Shown here: in pieces, positions 36,156 to 62,712 of the stretch
How the letters are laid out: each line of letters begins with the position of its first letter
How positions within the stretch are numbered: the stretch's first letter is position 1
NCBI GenBank assembly: GCA_964355955.1
Contig: CAYHFQ010000001.1
Coordinates: forward strand, 39,419 to 103,418
Reading direction: 5' to 3'
DNA length: 64,000 nt
From: an uncultured Gammaproteobacteria bacterium
Lineage (GTDB): Bacteria > Patescibacteriota > Patescibacteriia > UBA9934
The notes under the pieces: model-generated
The model's database searches: none
Told to the model about the DNA's origin: nothing
The model's input: the letters and a program-made list of their open reading frames with translations, nothing else
Made by a program: the position numbers and the translations under genes

Positions 36156-36941
36156 CTAGGATTTAAATGAATACGGCTGGCCCTGGTTGAACAGGGTGTT
36201 AAAGGTGGCTTTGAAGGAGTCCGCGATGCCGGGGTGAGTGATGGTGACGACCAAGTTGGTTTGCGGGAAGAGATATGCGAGGGTGGAGCCGTACATGATG
36301 GTGAGGCCTTGGAAGGGTAAGGCGGATTCGGGATAGGTGCGGACGCTAATTTGGCGCTGTTGGAGTAAGGCGAGGTTGATGGGCGAAATGAGGGTGTTGG
36401 GGATTTGGGTGGCTTCAGCAGTGAGGATGAGTTTGGTGGCGATTTTACGGGCGATGATTTTAGAGAAAAAATTGTTTGTCTCCGTGTTGCTTAAGAGAGT
36501 CAGCTCGCTGTTTAAAGCTGTGGCGCCTTCAATGACGTAGAAAGTTGAACCTTCCGGGAGGGAAGAGATTTCATCGTAAACTTTGAAGTAGCCGGCGCGA
36601 GATTCGCTGACTTGGACGCGGGGCGCTTCAACTTCAATTTTTTGGAGGACTTCCAACTGCGGCACGAGGCTTTTAAAGTCCGTGGTTAGGCGGTCAAAGC
36701 GGGCAGCGAGTGTGGCTGGCGGCGTGGCGGTGTAAAGGAGGGTGCGGCCGTGGTTAGATTCGACGACGAGTTCTTTGGCGAGGAGCTTTTTGAGGTGAAA
36801 ATGCGTAGCGGTGCGGTTTTTTTTGATTTTGCTAGCAATATCAGAGACGCCAGCTGTGCCCAGTTTGAGTAAAGCGAGGTAAATGTCGGCTTCGTCAGCG
36901 GTGACGGAGAAGTAACTTAGGAGTTCTTTGGGATTGGTCAT
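36156..36941 (-). CDS. TrmB-family transcriptional regulator (copy 1)
   Basis: N-terminal wHTH (…SVTADEADIYLALLKLGTAGVSDIASKIKKNRTATHFHLKKLLAKELV…) plus a TrmB-like C-terminal domain. The first ATG is at 36941; the maximal ORF starts at a TTG at 36977. Confidence 0.65.
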   Translation of the reverse strand: MTNPKELLSYFSVTADEADIYLALLKLGTAGVSDIASKIKKNRTATHFHLKKLLAKELVVESNHGRTLLYTATPPATLAARFDRLTTDFKSLVPQLEVLQKIEVEAPRVQVSESRAGYFKVYDEISSLPEGSTFYVIEGATALNSELTLLSNTETNNFFSKIIARKIATKLILTAEATQIPNTLISPINLALLQQRQISVRTYPESALPFQGLTIMYGSTLAYLFPQTNLVVTITHPGIADSFKATFNTLFNQGQPYSFKS

Positions 36942-37067
36942 ATGGGTTATATTAGACTGAAACTGGCATTTTGTCAACTATTTTAATCATCAAATTATAC
37001 CTTATTTATTGAATAATCTAGTTATTTATAAACTTATGCACATTATTGTTGACGAAAGAGGTAAAAA

Positions 37068-37850
37068 ATGGTATTGTATGTAGTCGAGCAGGGAATGGCC
37101 CGGTTCGACAAACAACCACAAGACACGGAGACTACCATGCGAATCCTCATCATCGACGACACCCCCGCCAACCTCAAGGCCGCCGAACAGACCCTCGCTG
37201 GCCACCAGCTGACGTTGGTTGGTAGCTACGACGATGCATACAAGCTGCTCGAGGAGCCTTCTGCCGACTACAAGGAAGTGGAGGCAGAGTTGAAGAGACT
37301 CGGCTACAACCGGCGTCCTGACCTCAGCCAGGAAGAAAAAAACGCCTTCCAAAAGGAGCAGGCGCGGCTTGAGAAGGAGCTGCGACCGGCTGGGAACTTC
37401 GATGTCGTGTTGTGCGACATGATGATGCCAGCTGGTAAGCGAATCCAGGTGTCGAATGACCTGGTCGGGCAGTTGATGCCGGTCGGCTTTGCCTTGGTAC
37501 TCGACGCCGTGTTGCATGGCGCCAAATACGTCGGCATGCTGACCGACGGCGACCACCACAACCACCCTGCGGTCGCCTGGATTGATCGCCTGTCCAGCTA
37601 TCACGGATGGAGTGATGATCCGTACAAGTGCCCGGCACGCTTCATCGTGAACGGAGCGACGGTCGGGTACTTCCGCGGTCAAAATACCTTCCTGGTGGAG
37701 GGAGAAACGTGCGAAAAATGCAAAGGCACTCGGATTGATGACAACAGTGAGTTTGCAGGGCCGCCAGTTTGCTACGCCTGCACCGCCGATGGCAAGGTTC
37801 GTGCGAAGGATTGGGGGAAGGTACTCAAGCGGCTGCTCGGCGAAGGGTAG
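37068..37850 (+). CDS. Atypical CheY-like receiver-domain protein with a C-terminal Cys4 zinc-ribbon-like region
   Basis: MRILIIDDTPANLKAAEQ… (DD pair), DVVLCDMMMP (phospho-acceptor Asp context), and a C-terminal CEKCKG…CYAC. GC-rich. RBS AAGAGG lies before 37068. There is no output domain of known type. Confidence 0.55.
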   Translation: MVLYVVEQGMARFDKQPQDTETTMRILIIDDTPANLKAAEQTLAGHQLTLVGSYDDAYKLLEEPSADYKEVEAELKRLGYNRRPDLSQEEKNAFQKEQARLEKELRPAGNFDVVLCDMMMPAGKRIQVSNDLVGQLMPVGFALVLDAVLHGAKYVGMLTDGDHHNHPAVAWIDRLSSYHGWSDDPYKCPARFIVNGATVGYFRGQNTFLVEGETCEKCKGTRIDDNSEFAGPPVCYACTADGKVRAKDWGKVLKRLLGEG

Positions 37851-37977
37851 AGGCAAACAATACATTAACAACTTTCCTTGGCGTGAGTAGCACTCGCTCG
37901 CGCCCAGCATCGAGACGCCGAGCTGTTCGGCGGATCGACACTGATAACAATGCAACCAACGAACTACGGAGTCAGCC

Positions 37978-39486
37978 ATGACCATGAACGTCGCCTTTGT
38001 TTCCCCTCAGCGCCAGGTCGATGCCATTCACGAGCCACCCCGCGGTGGGGTGCAGATCGGGCCGGCCTTGATGGCCTCGCTGCTCAATGGATATTACCTC
38101 GACGAGTCCGTCCGCAACGGCGGATGGCAGCGGCGTGAGCTCTGCGTTCGCACGCTGTGGCCAGGTGAGCGTGGCATCCACGAGACGCCGCTCAACCGCA
38201 CGTGGGGGGAAGTGCATGAGGAGAAGATGTACGACTTCCACAAGCTGTCGTCGACTGACTTCATCAGGAAGTACTCGGCGTTCAGGGAAGATGGCCGCGT
38301 GCAGCGCATCATCGCGCGGATCGGAATTCCGGAAGAGGAAACGATCCAGCACTTGCGCGACCTCCGCGTCGAGGCGGTCGGCATCCCCTTGGCGGCGTCG
38401 GCCAACTACCTGGCGGCCACGTCGCTCGGCAGGCGGATCAAGCGCGAGCTCGGCATCCGAGTGGTGATGGGTGGCCAGCACATCACGGCGGATCCTGAAC
38501 AGTTCGTCCGCGACAATCCGTGGGTCGACCACGTCGCGCAGGGCGACGCCATCACGACCATCGAGGACATGATGGCCGGCCGGGCAACGAGCAAGATTGT
38601 GAAGGGAGGATTCCAGAAGATGGAGGAATACCCAATCATGAACTGCGAGTTGTTGGCCGATGCTGGCTACTCGACTCCACCGACGCACAACTACCCCTCG
38701 GGGTTGAAGTCGATTGACTGGATGGCCAGTCGTGGGTGCTACCGTCATTGCGAATTCTGCTTTGCCGGGCGTCCGGAGCAGAAAGTCACGCAGTCTGGTT
38801 GGGACAAGATCCGACAGCAGCTCGACCACTTTGTGGCCTATGGCTACCAGGAGATTGTGCTGCAAGACGACGCGATTCTCTCTCGCCCGAAGGAGTTCTT
38901 CATTCCTTTGCTCGGGGAGATGAAGCAGCGCGGACTCTCGTGGTCAGACAACGGTGGCGTGGAGTTCGAGAGCCTGTCGGATGAGGTCACCGCGGCCATC
39001 ATGGCGTACAACGATGGCGGGTCGGGCGAGTGTTTCTCGCTGTACGTGCCGTTCAATCCGCGGCAGGGAAATGAGAAGCAGAGCTCGGCAGGGTCGATGA
39101 CCACGAAGTACGAGAACAGCAAGGAGAACCTGAAAAAGCTGCGCTCGGCGGGAGTGTACGTGTTGACGAGCATCATGGTCGGTACACCAGACCAGACACA
39201 CGAGACGTTCGCGGAAGACATGGCTGCTTCCAGGAAGTTGATCGTGGATGGGTACCTCGACTCGGCGCTGCCGTTGTCCGCCACCATGCTGCCCGGCACC
39301 AGGTGGTTCGAACGCAACGGCCACAACATCGTCCACCAGGACGACTGGGCAGGCTACAACCTGTTCAGCACCCACCACAACACCAACGACATGACTGCTC
39401 GTAAGATCGAGGAGGGCATGGTCCGGTGGGTGAAGGAGTCAGGCGACGTGCAGACGATCGAGGCCTGGCAGTGTGCCTTTGCGTAA
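37978..39486 (+). CDS. B12-binding-domain radical SAM enzyme (class B-like)
   Basis: Radical SAM cluster motif CYRHCEFC (CxxxCxxC) preceded by SRG. An N-terminal Rossmann-like B12-binding-type region (…VVMGGQHITADPEQF…). RBS GGAG is present. GC-rich. Confidence 0.75.
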   Translation: MTMNVAFVSPQRQVDAIHEPPRGGVQIGPALMASLLNGYYLDESVRNGGWQRRELCVRTLWPGERGIHETPLNRTWGEVHEEKMYDFHKLSSTDFIRKYSAFREDGRVQRIIARIGIPEEETIQHLRDLRVEAVGIPLAASANYLAATSLGRRIKRELGIRVVMGGQHITADPEQFVRDNPWVDHVAQGDAITTIEDMMAGRATSKIVKGGFQKMEEYPIMNCELLADAGYSTPPTHNYPSGLKSIDWMASRGCYRHCEFCFAGRPEQKVTQSGWDKIRQQLDHFVAYGYQEIVLQDDAILSRPKEFFIPLLGEMKQRGLSWSDNGGVEFESLSDEVTAAIMAYNDGGSGECFSLYVPFNPRQGNEKQSSAGSMTTKYENSKENLKKLRSAGVYVLTSIMVGTPDQTHETFAEDMAASRKLIVDGYLDSALPLSATMLPGTRWFERNGHNIVHQDDWAGYNLFSTHHNTNDMTARKIEEGMVRWVKESGDVQTIEAWQCAFA

Positions 39487-46971: not shown

Positions 46972-47463
46972 TTAGGCTCTTTTTTTACAGGTAAATTTAT
47001 GATAATGGTCGGCCAAGTTGAGTAACGGAACGCTGGTGCGCTTAAGCAAAATCGAGCATTTGTTTTTGTTGGGTATCAATAATGAGACTGGAAATTGACG
47101 CTCAACTAGGAAATCTACTAAACAACGAAAATCGCCATCGCCTGAAACTATTACACAACCGTCAAAAACTTTTTCGTAATAATCTGAAACTACCTGTAAG
47201 ACTAGCTCAGCATCGCAATTGCCCTTGATTAAACCGAGCGAAGTAGTGACTGTTTCTTTGAAGATGAGAATGAAGCCAGCTTCCTGAAGATGTTTATATA
47301 GTTTAGTGCGCTGCGGAATCAAACCGATAAATAAATAGACTTTAGTAGCGCCAAATTTTTGCCGTAGCCAGCCACGCATTTTGGCGTAATCGATATTATG
47401 GCCGAGTTCGGTTGAACCTTTATGTAGGTTGGCTCCATCAATATAAATACCCGTATTTTCCAT
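46972..47463 (-). CDS. NYN-domain (LabA-like, PIN-fold) protein, paralog 1
   Basis: IYIDGANL… and VSGDGDF motifs of the NYN family. The first plausible Met (MENTGIY) is at 47463. Confidence 0.65.
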   Translation of the reverse strand: MENTGIYIDGANLHKGSTELGHNIDYAKMRGWLRQKFGATKVYLFIGLIPQRTKLYKHLQEAGFILIFKETVTTSLGLIKGNCDAELVLQVVSDYYEKVFDGCVIVSGDGDFRCLVDFLVERQFPVSLLIPNKNKCSILLKRTSVPLLNLADHYHKFTCKKRA

Positions 47464-47580
47464 ATTTGGTATTGTACCATTTCCATTGTCTCCGCTAAAC
47501 GCGAAACCGGAGTCTGCACGCACGATGGCGGCAAACTCCGGTTAGAGACGCTGGGCCACTTCGCGAGGAAGTGCCGAGGG

Positions 47581-48108
47581 TCAGGGGGTGGGCTGTTGCT
47601 CGTCCGAGATCACCAAACGGTGTTCTGCGTCCATCATGTCGACGAGATTGATCATGTAGATGCTCCAGCTCCCTGATTGCCAGTAGAGCAACGGAGCGAA
47701 CATATAGTTGCAGTCGGAAAAGGCAGAGTCATCTGGCCACATGACCGTAGTGCCGGTGAAACCCACCCCCTTGTACCGCTTCCATTCCTCAGGAATGAGG
47801 TGCTGGTTGCGATATAGAAAAGCAAGCATATTGATATTACCCGGGCGCTTGGTCTTGAGACGTTCGACCAACACATCGACGAGAATCGGACAGCCGATGC
47901 GCTGTTCCGGGCTCTGGTAGAGCTTGAGGCTGTTGACCGCGACCAGACCACAGGGCCGGTGTGCAATGATCTTCATGCCAAGCTCAGGAAAGTGATCTGT
48001 TGGTGGGGTAGTACAGTCGACAATACCGATGATGACGCCGGTAGCACGAAGGGCGGCCAAAGCGTCGGCCTCGGTGTCGAAGGACTGTGCGAAAGGGAGA
48101 GAGGACAT
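47581..48108 (-). CDS. Hypothetical protein (GC-rich)
   Basis: ORF starting at MSSLPF… with no recognisable motif. Confidence 0.4.
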   Translation of the reverse strand: MSSLPFAQSFDTEADALAALRATGVIIGIVDCTTPPTDHFPELGMKIIAHRPCGLVAVNSLKLYQSPEQRIGCPILVDVLVERLKTKRPGNINMLAFLYRNQHLIPEEWKRYKGVGFTGTTVMWPDDSAFSDCNYMFAPLLYWQSGSWSIYMINLVDMMDAEHRLVISDEQQPTP

Positions 48109-58794: not shown

Positions 58795-60084
58795 ATGTCA
58801 TACGTTGTTGAACAGCTCCCCGAGAACAAGGCCAAGATCACCGTGACCATCCCAGCAGAAGAGGTAACCGAGGCTTGTCATGTAGCTGCCGAACACATGG
58901 CGGAAGATGTAACCATTCCTGGTTACCGCCCGGGCAAGGCACCTTATGAGGCGATTAAGCAAAAAATTGGTGAAATGGCCATTTTGGAGCACGCCACCGA
59001 AGATTTGGTGCGTCAGACCTTTGTCGCCGCCATGGTCGAAGCTGACTTGGATGTGGTCGGCCAGCCGTTCTTTGCCATGGAGAAGTTGGCTCCAGATAAC
59101 GACTTTATTTACACGGCGGAGATCGCTTTGATGCCGCAGATTACTAAGTTGGCTGATTGGACTAAGTTGTCCGTCGAAAAGAAAGAGACCGAGCCAACTA
59201 AGGAGTTGCTCGAACAGGCCAAGGCCGACATTGTGCGCATGCAGACCAAAGAGGTGAAGGCCGAAGCTGGTCGCGCGCTGACCATGGGCGATAAGGCGAT
59301 TGTGAACCTGACCATGAAGAAGGACGGAGTGGTGCTAGAAGGTGGCGAGAGCAAGAACCATGGTGTATTCACGAATGAGAGCTATTACGTGCCTGGTTTT
59401 GTCGACGAGATTTTGGGCTTGAAAGAAGGTGAGGAAAAGACTTTCACTTTGAACTTCCCAGCCGAGCACTACCAGAAGCACTTGGCCGGTCAGCCGGTTG
59501 ATTTCACCATTAAGTTGAATGAGATCTTCTTACTCCAGCCACCAATGTTTGATGATGCGTTTGCCGTCACCGTTGGTTTGACCAGTGCTAGTGAGATGGA
59601 AGAAAAGCTCATGGAAAACTTGCGCGCCGAGAACAAGATTGAAGAGGCACGACGCTTGGATAAGGCGGTGCTCGACCTCGTGGCCGACAAGTCGACGTTC
59701 GATATTATTCCAGATTTGCTGGTCAACCAAGAAATTGAAAAGATGACGCACGAATTGGAGCACCAGGTAACCAGCCAGGGCATGGACTTCACCCAATACT
59801 TGGCCTCGATCAACAAGTCGTTGACCGACCTCAAGATTGATTTCACCCCAGCCGCCTTGCAACGAATTAAGGTAGGAATTATTTTGAAGAAGATTTCTGC
59901 CGAGGAGAAAGTAACAGTCGACCAAACGGTGCTCGACGCTGAGCTCGACAAAGTTGCTGAGCAGTACAAGGACGACGCTGAGGCTGCTAAACAGATTTAT
60001 GAGCCACAGTACCGGGATTATATTGAGAGGCAGATGGTGAACCGGAAGACCATCGACCTTTTGAAAGAGAAGATGGTGAGGTAA
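58795..60084 (+). CDS. tig: Trigger factor
   Basis: N-terminal ribosome-binding domain with a PGYRPGKAPY motif. PPIase-like middle domain and C-terminal arm. Confidence 0.9.
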   Translation: MSYVVEQLPENKAKITVTIPAEEVTEACHVAAEHMAEDVTIPGYRPGKAPYEAIKQKIGEMAILEHATEDLVRQTFVAAMVEADLDVVGQPFFAMEKLAPDNDFIYTAEIALMPQITKLADWTKLSVEKKETEPTKELLEQAKADIVRMQTKEVKAEAGRALTMGDKAIVNLTMKKDGVVLEGGESKNHGVFTNESYYVPGFVDEILGLKEGEEKTFTLNFPAEHYQKHLAGQPVDFTIKLNEIFLLQPPMFDDAFAVTVGLTSASEMEEKLMENLRAENKIEEARRLDKAVLDLVADKSTFDIIPDLLVNQEIEKMTHELEHQVTSQGMDFTQYLASINKSLTDLKIDFTPAALQRIKVGIILKKISAEEKVTVDQTVLDAELDKVAEQYKDDAEAAKQIYEPQYRDYIERQMVNRKTIDLLKEKMVR

Positions 60085-60097
60085 GTGATGAGAAAAT

Positions 60098-60150
60098 AAA
60101 ACACCTCCTGGAGCTGCGCAAAGCTCCGGGAGATGTTTTATTTTGTCCGA
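60098..60150 (+). terminator. Rho-independent terminator after tig
   Basis: CCTCCTGGAGCTgcgcaaAGCTCCGGGAG followed by ATGTTTTATTTTG. Confidence 0.65.
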
Positions 60151-60184
60151 ATCCAAAGCGTCGATCAGCCACGGCTTGGAAAGG

Positions 60185-60282
60185 GGCGCGAGGGGAGTGC
60201 GGTGCAGCACCCTATTCTCACGCGAGGTTTGTTTATTAATGGGCTCGAGGGGAGTGGTACGGACCACTCGACCCTCACGCAG
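60185..60282. repeat. Two adjacent GC-rich hairpin repeats downstream of paralog gene 2
   Basis: GCGCGAGGGGAGTGcggtgcagCACCCTATTCTCACGCGAGG and CGAGGGGAGTGGtacggaCCACTCgaCCCTCACGCAG. They share their core with the repeat at 60713-60760. Confidence 0.6.
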
Positions 60283-60307
60283 ACTGCTAATCAGTGGTAT
60301 GCCAGTA

Positions 60308-60640
60308 CTACGTCCTCGGCTTCACGTCGAAACGTAAGTTCCAGGAATCCATGTTTTGAACGAAATCAATTTTCAGGCGTTCGGCCAGTCGATCTCGCGA
60401 TGCAAGAACGTTAGGCCAATGCTCATAGGTGATCGGCAAGTACACAATGTGCTGCACATAACCGCGTTGATTATGTACCGCGCAGATGTCACTACCTCCA
60501 CACGTCCTGAAAACGACCTCGTATGAGTAGTGTTCGTCACCCCGGTTACCACGATAGAAGAACAGGAGGTAGTCACCGGTGGTAAGCTGATGATGACGAA
60601 TGCCGTTCTTGGTGAAATGAGTAATGGAGTCAAACAACAT
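60308..60640 (-). CDS. Hypothetical small protein, tandem paralog 2 (His/Cys-containing)
   Basis: 110 aa. The leader immediately upstream (…CTTCGGCACGGAGATAACATG) is almost identical to that of paralog 1. Confidence 0.4.
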   Translation of the reverse strand: MLFDSITHFTKNGIRHHQLTTGDYLLFFYRGNRGDEHYSYEVVFRTCGGSDICAVHNQRGYVQHIVYLPITYEHWPNVLASRDRLAERLKIDFVQNMDSWNLRFDVKPRT

Positions 60641-60712
60641 GTTATCTCCGTGCCGAAGTGATCGGCGTGTGGGTTTACCGGATCTGAAGCATCGAGAATT
60701 CGATACCTCGGA

Positions 60713-60760
60713 AGGGGGCGCGAAGGGAGTGGAGTGAACACTCGACCCTCGCGCAGAGAT
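60713..60760. repeat. GC-rich hairpin repeat downstream of paralog gene 1
   Basis: GCGCGAAGGGAGTGgagtgaaCACTCgaCCCTCGCGCAG. Confidence 0.6.
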
Positions 60761-60769
60761 CCGCAGTTT

Positions 60770-61195
60770 TTAGCTTGTGAAAGCCACAACTGCAAATGAG
60801 ACGCTGCCGCCAGCTTCGTTGACCCATCCGAACTGCCACCCCGTGCCGTTTTCTCCACGGCTCAAGCACTTGAAGTAACATTCGTCGCGCTCGGAGATAA
60901 ACCTCGTCTCCGTGGCCACGACATACCAGCAGTGCAGGGGTACTCGATCCAGAATGGACCGGTTTCGCTCGAGGAACACCAGCACATTGATGTTCACAGG
61001 ATTGAGGTTGGCTTGCCGAGTCTTGCAGGACAGGTTGACGCCGTCGCTCTTCATCGTCTGGAAAAAGACGATTTTGCTCGGGTCTACCTGGCCACATGGC
61101 GCGTGATCTACCTGCTTATGGTGCAACCAGGGGTGGGGGTTGACCAGGGTCAGGGCAGCGTCGCCGTCGATCATGAGGTTGGGATTGATGGACAT
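60770..61195 (-). CDS. Hypothetical small protein, tandem paralog 1 (His/Cys-containing)
   Basis: 141 aa from the ATG at 61195, with GGAG 8 nt upstream. Leader …CTTCGGCACGGAGTCTAACATG. The maximal ORF extends to 61261. Confidence 0.4.
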   Translation of the reverse strand: MSINPNLMIDGDAALTLVNPHPWLHHKQVDHAPCGQVDPSKIVFFQTMKSDGVNLSCKTRQANLNPVNINVLVFLERNRSILDRVPLHCWYVVATETRFISERDECYFKCLSRGENGTGWQFGWVNEAGGSVSFAVVAFTS

Positions 61196-61385
61196 GTTAG
61201 ACTCCGTGCCGAAGATGTCGGCGATGGGTGGTGGTGCCGAGTGTGAGCAGAAGCGCTCCAACTCGACTGAGTACTATACCATATTTTAGTGTTATTTTCA
61301 ATAACTGTATGCCGAGGATTACTGTGTATAAGTCCTATTTACAGCCTTACAGTTGAGTTATATACTGTTACTATATATAACAACT

Positions 61386-62126
61386 ATGGCTATTGCTTAT
61401 ACCGAGACGCTCAGAAATGTGGGGCTCAGTCAGACTGAGGCGGATTTATATGTGGCTTGTACGGCGTTGGGAGAGGCGCCGGCGAGTGTGATTGCCAGAA
61501 AAACGGGGATGAATAGGTCCACTACCTATGTTGGGTTGAAAGCGATGGAGAAAAAGGGGCTAGTTGGGTCCACCGAGACCAATGGCACACAGTTGTTTTA
61601 TGCCAAGGAACCGGATTTGTTATTGAAACAGGCGGAGCGAAGTGTGGAGGATTTACGGAAGACGTTGCCGGATTTGCGGGCGTTGTCGGGCCGGGTGTCG
61701 TCCAAGCAACCGAGAGTGCAGTATTACCCGGGGATTGAGGGGGTGAAGACGGTGCTGGAGGATACGCTGACGGCGAAGGAGACTATTTTGACGTTTGGCG
61801 ATGCAGATTTGGTGGTGGCGAACCTGAAGGATTATTACAGCGACTATATTGCTAGGCGGACGGCGGCGGGGATTAGGACGCAGGCGGTGCTGAATGAGGG
61901 CAATGTGGGTAAGAAGTTTTTTGCGGCGAGTCGGGAAGAGCTGCGTGAGGTGCGGTTGGTACCGAAGACGTATGCGATGCCGAATGAGATCAAGATTTAC
62001 GACGGCAAGGTGGCGATCATGTCGCATAAGTCGCCGTATGGTGGGATTTTGATTCACGACCAGGCGATGTACGAGACGCAACGGTCGATTTTTGCGATGG
62101 CGTGGGAGTTTGCGAAGGGGGAGTAA
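61386..62126 (+). CDS. TrmB-family transcriptional regulator (copy 3)
   Basis: N-terminal wHTH (…LSQTEADLYVACTALGEAPASVIARKTGMNRSTTYVGLKAMEKKGLV…) plus a TrmB-like C-terminal domain. The first ATG is at 61386; the ORF track starts at a TTG at 61353. Confidence 0.7.
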   Translation: MAIAYTETLRNVGLSQTEADLYVACTALGEAPASVIARKTGMNRSTTYVGLKAMEKKGLVGSTETNGTQLFYAKEPDLLLKQAERSVEDLRKTLPDLRALSGRVSSKQPRVQYYPGIEGVKTVLEDTLTAKETILTFGDADLVVANLKDYYSDYIARRTAAGIRTQAVLNEGNVGKKFFAASREELREVRLVPKTYAMPNEIKIYDGKVAIMSHKSPYGGILIHDQAMYETQRSIFAMAWEFAKGE

Positions 62127-62199: not shown

Positions 62200-62712
62200 A
62201 TGCCTTCAACAGTGCCAATAGAAATAATTGAGAATAAAATTTACGTTTTTCGCGGCCAAAAAGTAATGCTTGACCGTGACTTAGCGAAACTTTACGGAGT
62301 TCAAACAAAACGCTTTAATGAAGCTGTTCGAAGAAATATTCGCCGTTTCCCTGAGGATTTTTCTTTTAGACTGACGAAAGATGAGTTTACGAGTTTGAGG
62401 TCGCAAATTGCGACCTCAAACCGTGGAGGCCAACGCTATGAGCCTTTTGTCTTCACAGAACAGGGTATTGCCATGCTCTCTAGCGTCTTGAATAGTGAAA
62501 AGGCAATTGCAATAAATATCCAAATTATTCGTGCATTCATTTATTTACGTGACATGGCGATTGAAAATTCTGATCTCCGTTTGCGTCTGGAATACATAGA
62601 GAAGAATTATGATCAACAGTTTAGGATTATTTTTAATGCTTTACAGAATCCACAACAGAATGACCTGATCGAAGATGATCGAGAACCGATGGGCTTTAAA
62701 GATAACTCTTAA
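62200..62712 (+). CDS. ORF6N-domain protein (phage-associated DNA-binding/antirepressor-like family)
   Basis: …FRGQKVMLDRDLAKLYGVQTKRFNEAVRRNIRRFPEDFSFRLT…EPFVFTEQGIAMLSSVL… matches the ORF6N domain pattern. Confidence 0.65.
   Translation: MPSTVPIEIIENKIYVFRGQKVMLDRDLAKLYGVQTKRFNEAVRRNIRRFPEDFSFRLTKDEFTSLRSQIATSNRGGQRYEPFVFTEQGIAMLSSVLNSEKAIAINIQIIRAFIYLRDMAIENSDLRLRLEYIEKNYDQQFRIIFNALQNPQQNDLIEDDREPMGFKDNS

Follow-up and report, generated by a model that had tools for sequence, protein, structure and literature searches.

The region between the trigger factor gene tig and the gene of a TrmB-family regulator (60085-61352, minus strand) in the window, i.e. the whole 64-kb stretch of DNA that was analysed, raises the question of why two small genes should each be framed by near-identical leaders and GC-rich hairpins. 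A preliminary description of the locus had placed two minus-strand ORFs here, both of which are present and are referred to as W1 and W2 (Table 1), and had read them as a unit of leader, gene and hairpin that was duplicated in tandem and then diverged in its coding part. The host is a tiny groundwater bacterium, Candidatus Uhrbacteria, the closest genomes being Candidatus Uhrbacteria MAGs (Candidate Phyla Radiation); the proteins are encoded on a contig of 1,085,513 bp, and rnpA, dnaA and dnaN lie ~4-6 kb from the locus. As part of the explanation that we hold to be probable as a whole, the region is a two-gene operon, W1 and then W2, with a strong promoter facing away from the TrmB-family gene. 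The predicted promoter has 10 of 12 consensus matches with the TG present, and is conserved in four related genomes (L007, L009, L021 and L030); a stable hairpin would, from its inferred position relative to the -10 hexamer, lie at the predicted transcription start, and co-transcription and processing of the operon are predicted.

When the window spacers were aligned with the spacers at the orthologous loci of L021 (UBA11707), L009, L007 and L030, leader and hairpins proved to be parts of one element of ~125 nt that fills the gap between consecutive genes. The repeat is a non-coding spacer and not the flank of a duplicated gene. The element begins 6-37 nt past the stop codon and consists, in order, of hairpin A, a CCCCYUU joint, hairpin B, a CA-rich linker (GGUCAACCAC), hairpin C, GGAG, 5-6 nt and the AUG. 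In hairpin A the outer stem, GCGUGAG/CUCGCGC, is invariant and is followed by a 2-nt bulge and an inner stem that is variable in sequence and length; the CCCCYUU joint is likewise invariant, hairpin B has up to 13 bp and hairpin C is of the form GCCGA-N5-UCGGC. The near-identical leaders with a GGAG Shine-Dalgarno that had been noted before both ORFs were recovered, as the 13-nt sequence CTTCGGCACGGAG is present at exactly two places in the 64-kb window (61202-61214 and 60646-60658), both times on the minus strand and 6-7 nt before an ATG, with the similarity extending over ~38 nt and one stretch of 22 nt at 86%. The hairpin family noted 3' of the ORFs is also real and has three members (60716-60754, 60241-60280 and 60184-60223).

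Two further arrangements of the same parts were found. An extra copy of hairpin A with an 18-nt spacer (CCCATTAATAAACAAACC) lies 3' of W2, an arrangement that is also present 3' of the F2 gene in L021. The last small ORF is followed by a terminal variant, which consists of hairpin A and a co-varying form of hairpin B, without hairpin C and without a Shine-Dalgarno. In the relatives this terminal element lies 5' of a SAM-dependent methyltransferase gene and, in L007, also of a class-V aminotransferase gene; the window has no such methyltransferase gene, and its terminal element is joined immediately to the bidirectional terminator that the operon has in common with tig. The 5'-UTR hairpin shares a GTCGAGT motif with hairpin A. 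Screening of the window with the Rfam 15 covariance models (gathering threshold or E<=1) returned only tRNAs and no match to the element, the sole match within 60000-61400 being a spurious miRNA match on the terminator. Hairpin A was considered as an intrinsic terminator and rejected, as it has no U-tract and is followed by CCCCYUUCC, and the terminator scan gives only 60105-60132. The idea that the terminal hairpin A is a chimera marking a deletion break point was also dropped, its arms being too diverged to tell.

Table 1. Features of the W1-W2 locus and of the second locus with a copy of the element, in window coordinates.
Feature	Position	Strand	Details
Trigger factor gene tig	58795-60084	+	Flank of the locus
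Bidirectional intrinsic terminator common to operon and tig	60090-60147	.	Terminator scan (60105-60132)
Terminal-type element, hairpin A and variant hairpin B	60147-60223	-	78 bits
Extra hairpin A copy and 18-nt spacer	60224-60280	-	27 bits
W2, 110 aa, orphan family F2	60308-60640	-	ORF list, family search
Full element, internal type	60641-60769	-	Covariance model 84 bits; RNA fold z -5.2
Parts of the internal element	A 60719-60754; B 60683-60712; C 60652-60666; GGAG 60646-60649	-	CA-rich linker between B and C
W1, 141 aa, orphan family F1	60770-61195	-	ORF list, family search
Leader copy 1	61202-61222	-	Hairpin C GCCGA-CATCT-TCGGC 61208-61222; GGAG Shine-Dalgarno 61202-61205
5'-UTR hairpin at predicted transcription start	61236-61267	-	5'-UTR fold -25.5 kcal/mol, z -3.1
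Predicted operon promoter	61273-61301	-	-35 TTGAAA 61301-61296; 17-nt spacer; TG-extended -10 TATAGT 61278-61273
TrmB-family regulator gene	61386-62126	+	Divergent from W1-W2 operon; promoter-like site 61338-61366
Second TrmB-family gene	36156-36977	-	Divergent from the operon holding the diverged copy
Receiver-like ORF	37068-37850	+	Upstream of the diverged copy
Diverged element copy	37881-37944	+	Covariance model; between receiver-like and B12-binding radical-SAM ORFs
B12-binding radical-SAM ORF	37978-39486	+	Downstream of the diverged copy

The aligned copies show that the element folds as RNA. Across 13 related copies from 5 genomes, on which all the covariation counts rest, 92.6% of the 30 proposed pairs are paired, and 11 pairs carry changes on both sides, in 21 cells; none of 500 shuffles reached the observed pairing and compensation, and when the partner columns were slid only 36-49% were paired. 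Examples of covariation are pair 54-78, which changes from G-C to A-U (8 versus 5 copies), and pair 53-79, from C-G to U-A. The pairs also identify the mRNA strand as the folded one, because it is on the coding strand that most G·U pairs are seen (U4·G42 in 12 of 13 copies and G56·U76 in 11 of 13), the same positions on the opposite strand being A·C mismatches, and because the folding z of the window copy is -5.2 for the mRNA strand versus -2.3 for the opposite strand. In the centroid fold the Shine-Dalgarno is unpaired. The stem of hairpin C is invariant and hence offers no covariation, so its pairing is putative. In hairpin A the length of the inner stem and loop differs by 4-32 nt, most copies having a hairpin A of 15-16 bp with a 2-nt bulge. 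Between species the element is 76-85% identical at the nucleotide level, compared with ~47% identity at synonymous sites (pS about 0.53-0.56), and it is therefore under constraint.

A covariance model built from hairpins A and B recovered every copy on which it had been trained, with scores of 56-98 bits; both full copies of the window were in the training set and had E values of 1e-15 (internal type) and 2e-14 (terminal type). The hairpin-only copy at 60224-60280, which was outside the training set, was found with E values of 0.0026 and 0.0006 in two scans. The 64 kb contain 4 significant copies, which are confined to two operons and run in the direction of the genes. The same element is present at the orthologous loci of the relatives, where it separates the small ORFs of the operon (L021, L009 and L030) and follows the last of them (L021, L009, L007 and L030), and a diverged copy was found in the window beside a second TrmB-family gene, so that the similarity of leaders and hairpins extends beyond this single locus. 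Other new diverged copies were detected in L012 (10884-10955), L010 (9091-9148) and L009 (10677-10741), and every copy found is co-oriented with its genes. L012 and L010 are more distant species, with tig only 63-72% identical, and their copies share the strand of operons that diverge from TrmB-like genes; this copy of L009 is part of a 5'UTR without an upstream cistron. The element also occurs in the module-2 operon, both genes of which are retained in L021 and L030. Copies at several TrmB loci therefore define a lineage-specific mRNA element of several modules, each made of a TrmB gene and a divergent operon. No analogous repeated spacers were seen at the tig-adjoining locus of more distant relatives. 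A pattern scan for hairpin A and the joint gave no match in IMG/VR viral contigs and three matches in JGI metagenome contigs, which have nothing in common with the array beyond the search pattern.

The genes between these spacers encode unrelated proteins. W1 and W2 had been described as weakly similar, but on pairwise alignment BLASTP gave E=32 over 4 residues and profile-profile comparison by hhalign a probability of 1.9%, and we thus consider them unrelated; their predicted secondary structures differ as well. Family F1, to which W1 belongs, has 12 members, all of the Uhrbacteria type and without a Pfam domain. Family F2 has only 2 members in an HMM search of 1.84 billion representatives, W2 itself and its orthologue P0003, which is 64% identical. 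Omega is about 0.35 for W1 and 0.22 for W2 (range 0.22-0.37), which indicates that both are real genes under purifying selection, and it is 0.02 for the flanking tig and TrmB genes; the two proteins thus evolve ~10x faster than their housekeeping neighbours, as expected of the fast-evolving locus that had been suspected. Phase variation had been suspected too, but five independent assemblies of the same species are 100% identical across the 1268-nt region, and there is therefore no sign of variation within the species. For W1 and W2 nothing credible was found in Pfam, NCBIfam, PADLOC or PHROGs, known toxin, antitoxin or defence profiles included, the lone NCBIfam match being that of W2 to an adhesin at E 0.22, far below threshold; nothing was found among PDB profiles. 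An HNH-nuclease-like spacing of residues proposed for W2 is unsupported, because no Pfam, NCBIfam or PDB profile matches and because two of the His residues of the pattern are replaced in P0003.

What the element does is suggested by F1 genes that lack it. In more distant species the short contigs with other F1 genes do not contain the element, and these genes have their own promoter, a start-of-transcript hairpin, a CA-rich stretch, a small hairpin, a GGAG-type Shine-Dalgarno and a canonical terminator; the element is therefore not required for the genes themselves. The polycistronic clade appears to have swapped the terminator plus promoter for the intercistronic element, and it is from this layout of own promoter, start hairpin and terminator that the three roles proposed here are derived. 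We think it probable that the element is an RNA-level module of processing, stability and translation for strongly expressed orphan proteins. It would act in the mRNA, where it would mark the cistron boundaries: the upstream message would gain a protective 3' hairpin from it, an endonucleolytic cleavage would then leave the downstream message with a protective 5' hairpin, and the open Shine-Dalgarno that it presents would allow each small protein to be made at a high and similar level. The first cistron would receive equivalent protection from the hairpin at the transcription start. Control of the operon by the TrmB-family regulator may be supposed as well, and any role of the proteins is likewise conjectural. 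As a side effect, the repeated spacers would offer homology for gene loss, gain and duplication, which would explain the differing array content of related species.

Intercistronic stem-loops that direct processing or confer stability are known from the RNase III sites of the early region of phage T7 and from enterobacterial stabilisers of the REP/BIME type. As in those systems, one hairpin module recurs from one gene junction to the next along a single polycistronic transcript (predicted in our case), is located on the mRNA strand, lacks a U-tract and has a bulged stem of ~15 bp; unlike them, the element is tripartite, takes in the translation-initiation region of the gene that follows and is limited to a small number of TrmB-linked operons in a single clade of Uhrbacteria. 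A T7-type RNase III site spans about two helical turns of double-stranded RNA with an internal loop or bulge. One variant of the element (L030 5393-5451) has a hairpin A of only 8-9 bp, less than a classical RNase III site requires, and cleavage is here hypothetical. Bacterial mRNAs can also be stabilised by 5'-terminal hairpins, such as the stem-loop of the ompA 5'UTR. The transcript of our first cistron is similarly predicted to begin directly with a stable hairpin, and in related species each F1 transcript likewise has a hairpin at its start, whereas the internal cistrons would need the hypothetical processing step to expose hairpin A at a 5' end.

To our knowledge almost nothing is known of post-transcriptional control in the Candidate Phyla Radiation, and our literature searches on Uhrbacteria integrons, Patescibacteria intercistronic elements and RNA motifs of the Candidate Phyla Radiation found nothing relevant. 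In our view this TrmB-linked Uhrbacterium operon combines a new candidate structured intercistronic/leader RNA motif with two orphan protein families. If our reading is correct, it is a new covariation-supported structured mRNA motif in this radiation; it is new but of a fairly ordinary and familiar kind, not a duplicated gene, and it opens no long-standing question. It would mark a few TrmB-linked operons whose products are mostly orphans evolving ~10x faster than housekeeping genes, and would thus provide a handle for finding co-regulated genes without functional annotation in these symbionts. The locus is also a cautionary case, in that conserved spacers round non-homologous ORFs can mimic gene duplication or integron cassettes.

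The main rival to a processing and stability module is a regulator-binding role, in which the element would be a riboregulator, a site for a ligand or a specific RNA-binding protein by which every cistron of several TrmB-linked operons would be co-regulated. Even in distant species hairpin A keeps an invariant outer stem and CCCCYUU does not change, and the invariance of the stem suggests a sequence-specific recognition factor, so that binding by a regulator or recognition by a nuclease would fit it as well as passive stabilisation. The copy in the L009 5'UTR, which has no cistron before it, is in agreement with such a role, as is the recurrence of the element in unrelated operons that have only a TrmB-type neighbour in common. 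However, we could see no obvious alternative fold that hides the Shine-Dalgarno, hairpin A is free to vary in the length of its inner stem and loop and the neighbourhood has no conserved candidate for an RNA-binding protein, and we consider a riboregulator unlikely, if still worth weighing.

A bolder proposal gives the element an active part in the assembly of the operons. As a portable expression adaptor it would form, with the TrmB-type regulator, an integrase-independent cassette system of Uhrbacteria, such that any gene brought between two copies would join a co-regulated and strongly expressed operon; a factor recognising the GCGUGAG/CUCGCGCCCC stem would process the RNA or catalyse cassette exchange, and the F1 and F2 proteins would be conflict proteins that serve in host interaction or phage defence. 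Taken jointly, these suppositions seem to us improbable.

Cassettes bring to mind integrons, and the content of the array does differ between related genomes. The window holds F1 and F2, L021 holds F1, F2, F1, F3 and the methyltransferase, L009 holds F1, F3 and the methyltransferase, L030 has a 120-aa protein and then F1, L007 has one F3-like protein, the aminotransferase and the methyltransferase, and L008 has none. Copy number in relatives is thus variable, with 0 to 4 small ORFs at the locus and the methyltransferase present or absent, between genomes that are separate species (tig 80-87% identical at the nucleotide level, dS about 0.9 or saturated). The hairpins could then be attC-like single-stranded DNA recombination sites and the ORFs mobile, in an array without integrase. 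Like the chromosomal integron arrays of Vibrio cholerae with their ~124-nt repeats, the locus has imperfect palindromic spacers of ~120 nt between small, co-oriented, promoterless and mostly orphan ORFs, its content varies between relatives, and F1 genes occur elsewhere without the element. Unlike those arrays, it has no R''/R' core sites, as no RYYYAAC...GTTRRRY pair within 35-140 nt turned up when both strands of 60085-61352 were searched by regex, and there is no recombinase or integrase among the Pfam-annotated genes within ±10 kb, the sole tyrosine recombinase seen being an Xer-like gene 14 kb from the locus; an adjacent IntI with attI and Pc is, however, optional where attC clusters lack an integrase. 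The conservation continues through the Shine-Dalgarno to the ATG, which is not the case in attC, and the folded strand is, by its G·U pairs, the coding one, whereas in attC it is the bottom strand that folds. In addition, dS against the L021 orthologue is the same for W2 (0.96) as for tig (0.92), and W2 therefore appears to be vertically inherited. The presence of the element in the module-2 operon, with its two genes kept in two relatives, also speaks against mobile cassettes. Deletions and duplications between the spacers of an array of the F1-F2-F1-F3-methyltransferase type could, as far as gene order tells, account for the differences in content without any cassette shuffling. An origin as integron-like cassettes is in our view very improbable.

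The reading that W1 and W2 are themselves paralogues, left by tandem duplication of a leader-gene-hairpin unit and subsequent divergence of its coding part, fares no better. The non-coding copies are indeed mutually homologous, but the proteins are without similarity, differ in predicted secondary structure and have separate orthologues, so that for the W1-W2 pair we give it hardly any credence. Duplication in a wider sense did find support in the variable copy number and in L021, where one array contains two F1 paralogues that are 55% identical, each followed by a small protein with an N-terminal xYxLxxGDxL motif; duplication of a two-gene unit is therefore probable in the lineage of L021.

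Lastly, selfish dispersed repeats of the REP/MITE kind or double-stranded DNA operators for the TrmB regulator, which the palindromic, GC-rich nature of the elements and their constant proximity to TrmB-family genes might suggest, are just as remote, given the four significant copies in the 64 kb scanned of a 1.08-Mb genome, their restriction to two operons and co-orientation with the genes, the lack of copies in viral contigs, JGI matches unrelated to the array beyond the pattern, and a half-site spacing that varies by 4-32 nt along with compensatory stem changes, which points to a folded single strand rather than to a protein-bound duplex.

The encoded proteins were also modelled. The AF2 model of F1 is usable (pLDDT 76, pTM 0.76), but Foldseek found nothing significant for it in PDB or BFVD, and the top candidate, a phage DUF1566 protein (TM 0.41-0.47, E 1.2), is taken as noise; the F2 model is unusable (pLDDT 45). 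The N-terminal xYxLxxGDxL motif is common to F2, F3 and the L007 and L030 proteins, whose common ancestry is putative; a single superfamily of F2 and F3 was considered, for which hhalign gave a probability of 10.6% over 31 residues. A further distant F1 paralogue is encoded elsewhere in the window (47581-48108, minus strand), where it adjoins an NYN-domain gene, and hhalign relates it to F1 with a probability of 95% and an E value of 2.4e-8.

The rnpA-to-tig region, near the replication origin, behaves as a variable island. The lineage of the window is without the SAM-methyltransferase gene, as opposed to the related loci L007, L009 and L021, and the aminotransferase gene, an additional gene of L007, is also absent from it. 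At the junction (60147-60170, compared with L007 7291-9410), the terminal element, the variant that follows the last small ORF, abuts with its ...GGATTCGG the AAAATAAAACATCTCC of the terminator of tig, the trigger factor gene. The gene for the TrmB-family regulator is adjoined in the window by an ORF6N gene (KilA-N-like, of the phage antirepressor type), and in L021 and L008 a Fic gene adjoins tig. In more distant relatives (L011 and L012), the 3' side of tig carries pairs of GGTCACAAATTGTGACC hairpins at a spacing of ~247 nt; these are a separate, unrelated repeated hairpin family.

Features of the window and of related loci
Feature	Locus	Position	Strand	Remark
TrmB-like gene	window	36156-36977	-	divergent from the following ORF pair
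Receiver-like ORF, 260 aa	window	37068-37850
Diverged element copy	window	37881-37944		between the two ORFs; 24 bits
B12-binding radical-SAM ORF, 502 aa	window	37978-39486
NYN-domain (PIN-like RNase) gene	window	46972-47523	-	after the F1 paralogue
Distant F1-family paralogue	window	47581-48108	-	hhalign 95%, E 2.4e-8
ORF6N gene	window	62200-62712		adjoins TrmB gene
GGTCACAAATTGTGACC hairpin pair	L011	7299-7572		downstream of tig
GGTCACAAATTGTGACC hairpin pair	L012	9452-9728		downstream of tig

Alignment of F1, the orphan family of the 141-aa product W1, placed its best-conserved stretch at residues 8-50 of W1 (MIDGDAxPxEPxWAxxGKTVxxPCGxVDPxxLVFFQTEEMKNG), mostly within the N-terminal part (about residues 1-40), for which the model shows no regular structure; the confidence of the model is lowest at the N-terminus (pLDDT 52-63 for residues 1-30), and some homologues (P0011-P0014) have an added hydrophobic N-terminal segment. 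Elsewhere in the window (46972-48108, minus strand), a distant F1 paralogue has a promoter and a leader of its own, and the next gene after it codes for an NYN-domain protein. This pairing recurs in L027, between the homologue P0013 and an NYN gene, with a HicB-like ORF also nearby, and a functional link of F1 with an RNase is possible.

A second TrmB-linked module spans 36156-39486 of the window. The module labelled 2 is another, conserved in two related species at L021 12220-14292 and L030 3901-5935; there a TrmB gene is accompanied by two orphans, one of 181 aa and one, receiver-like, of ~155 aa. It has its own diverged copy of the intercistronic element, in which the outer stem of hairpin A is retained and the inner stem is replaced in L021 and nearly deleted in L030. 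At L030 1491-3843, a further TrmB gene points away from an ORF of 445 aa that has a CxxxCxxC-like motif and may encode an enzyme of the radical-SAM or B12 type, and the leader there contains the CTCATCCCGAG motif, which is also present in the leaders of L027.
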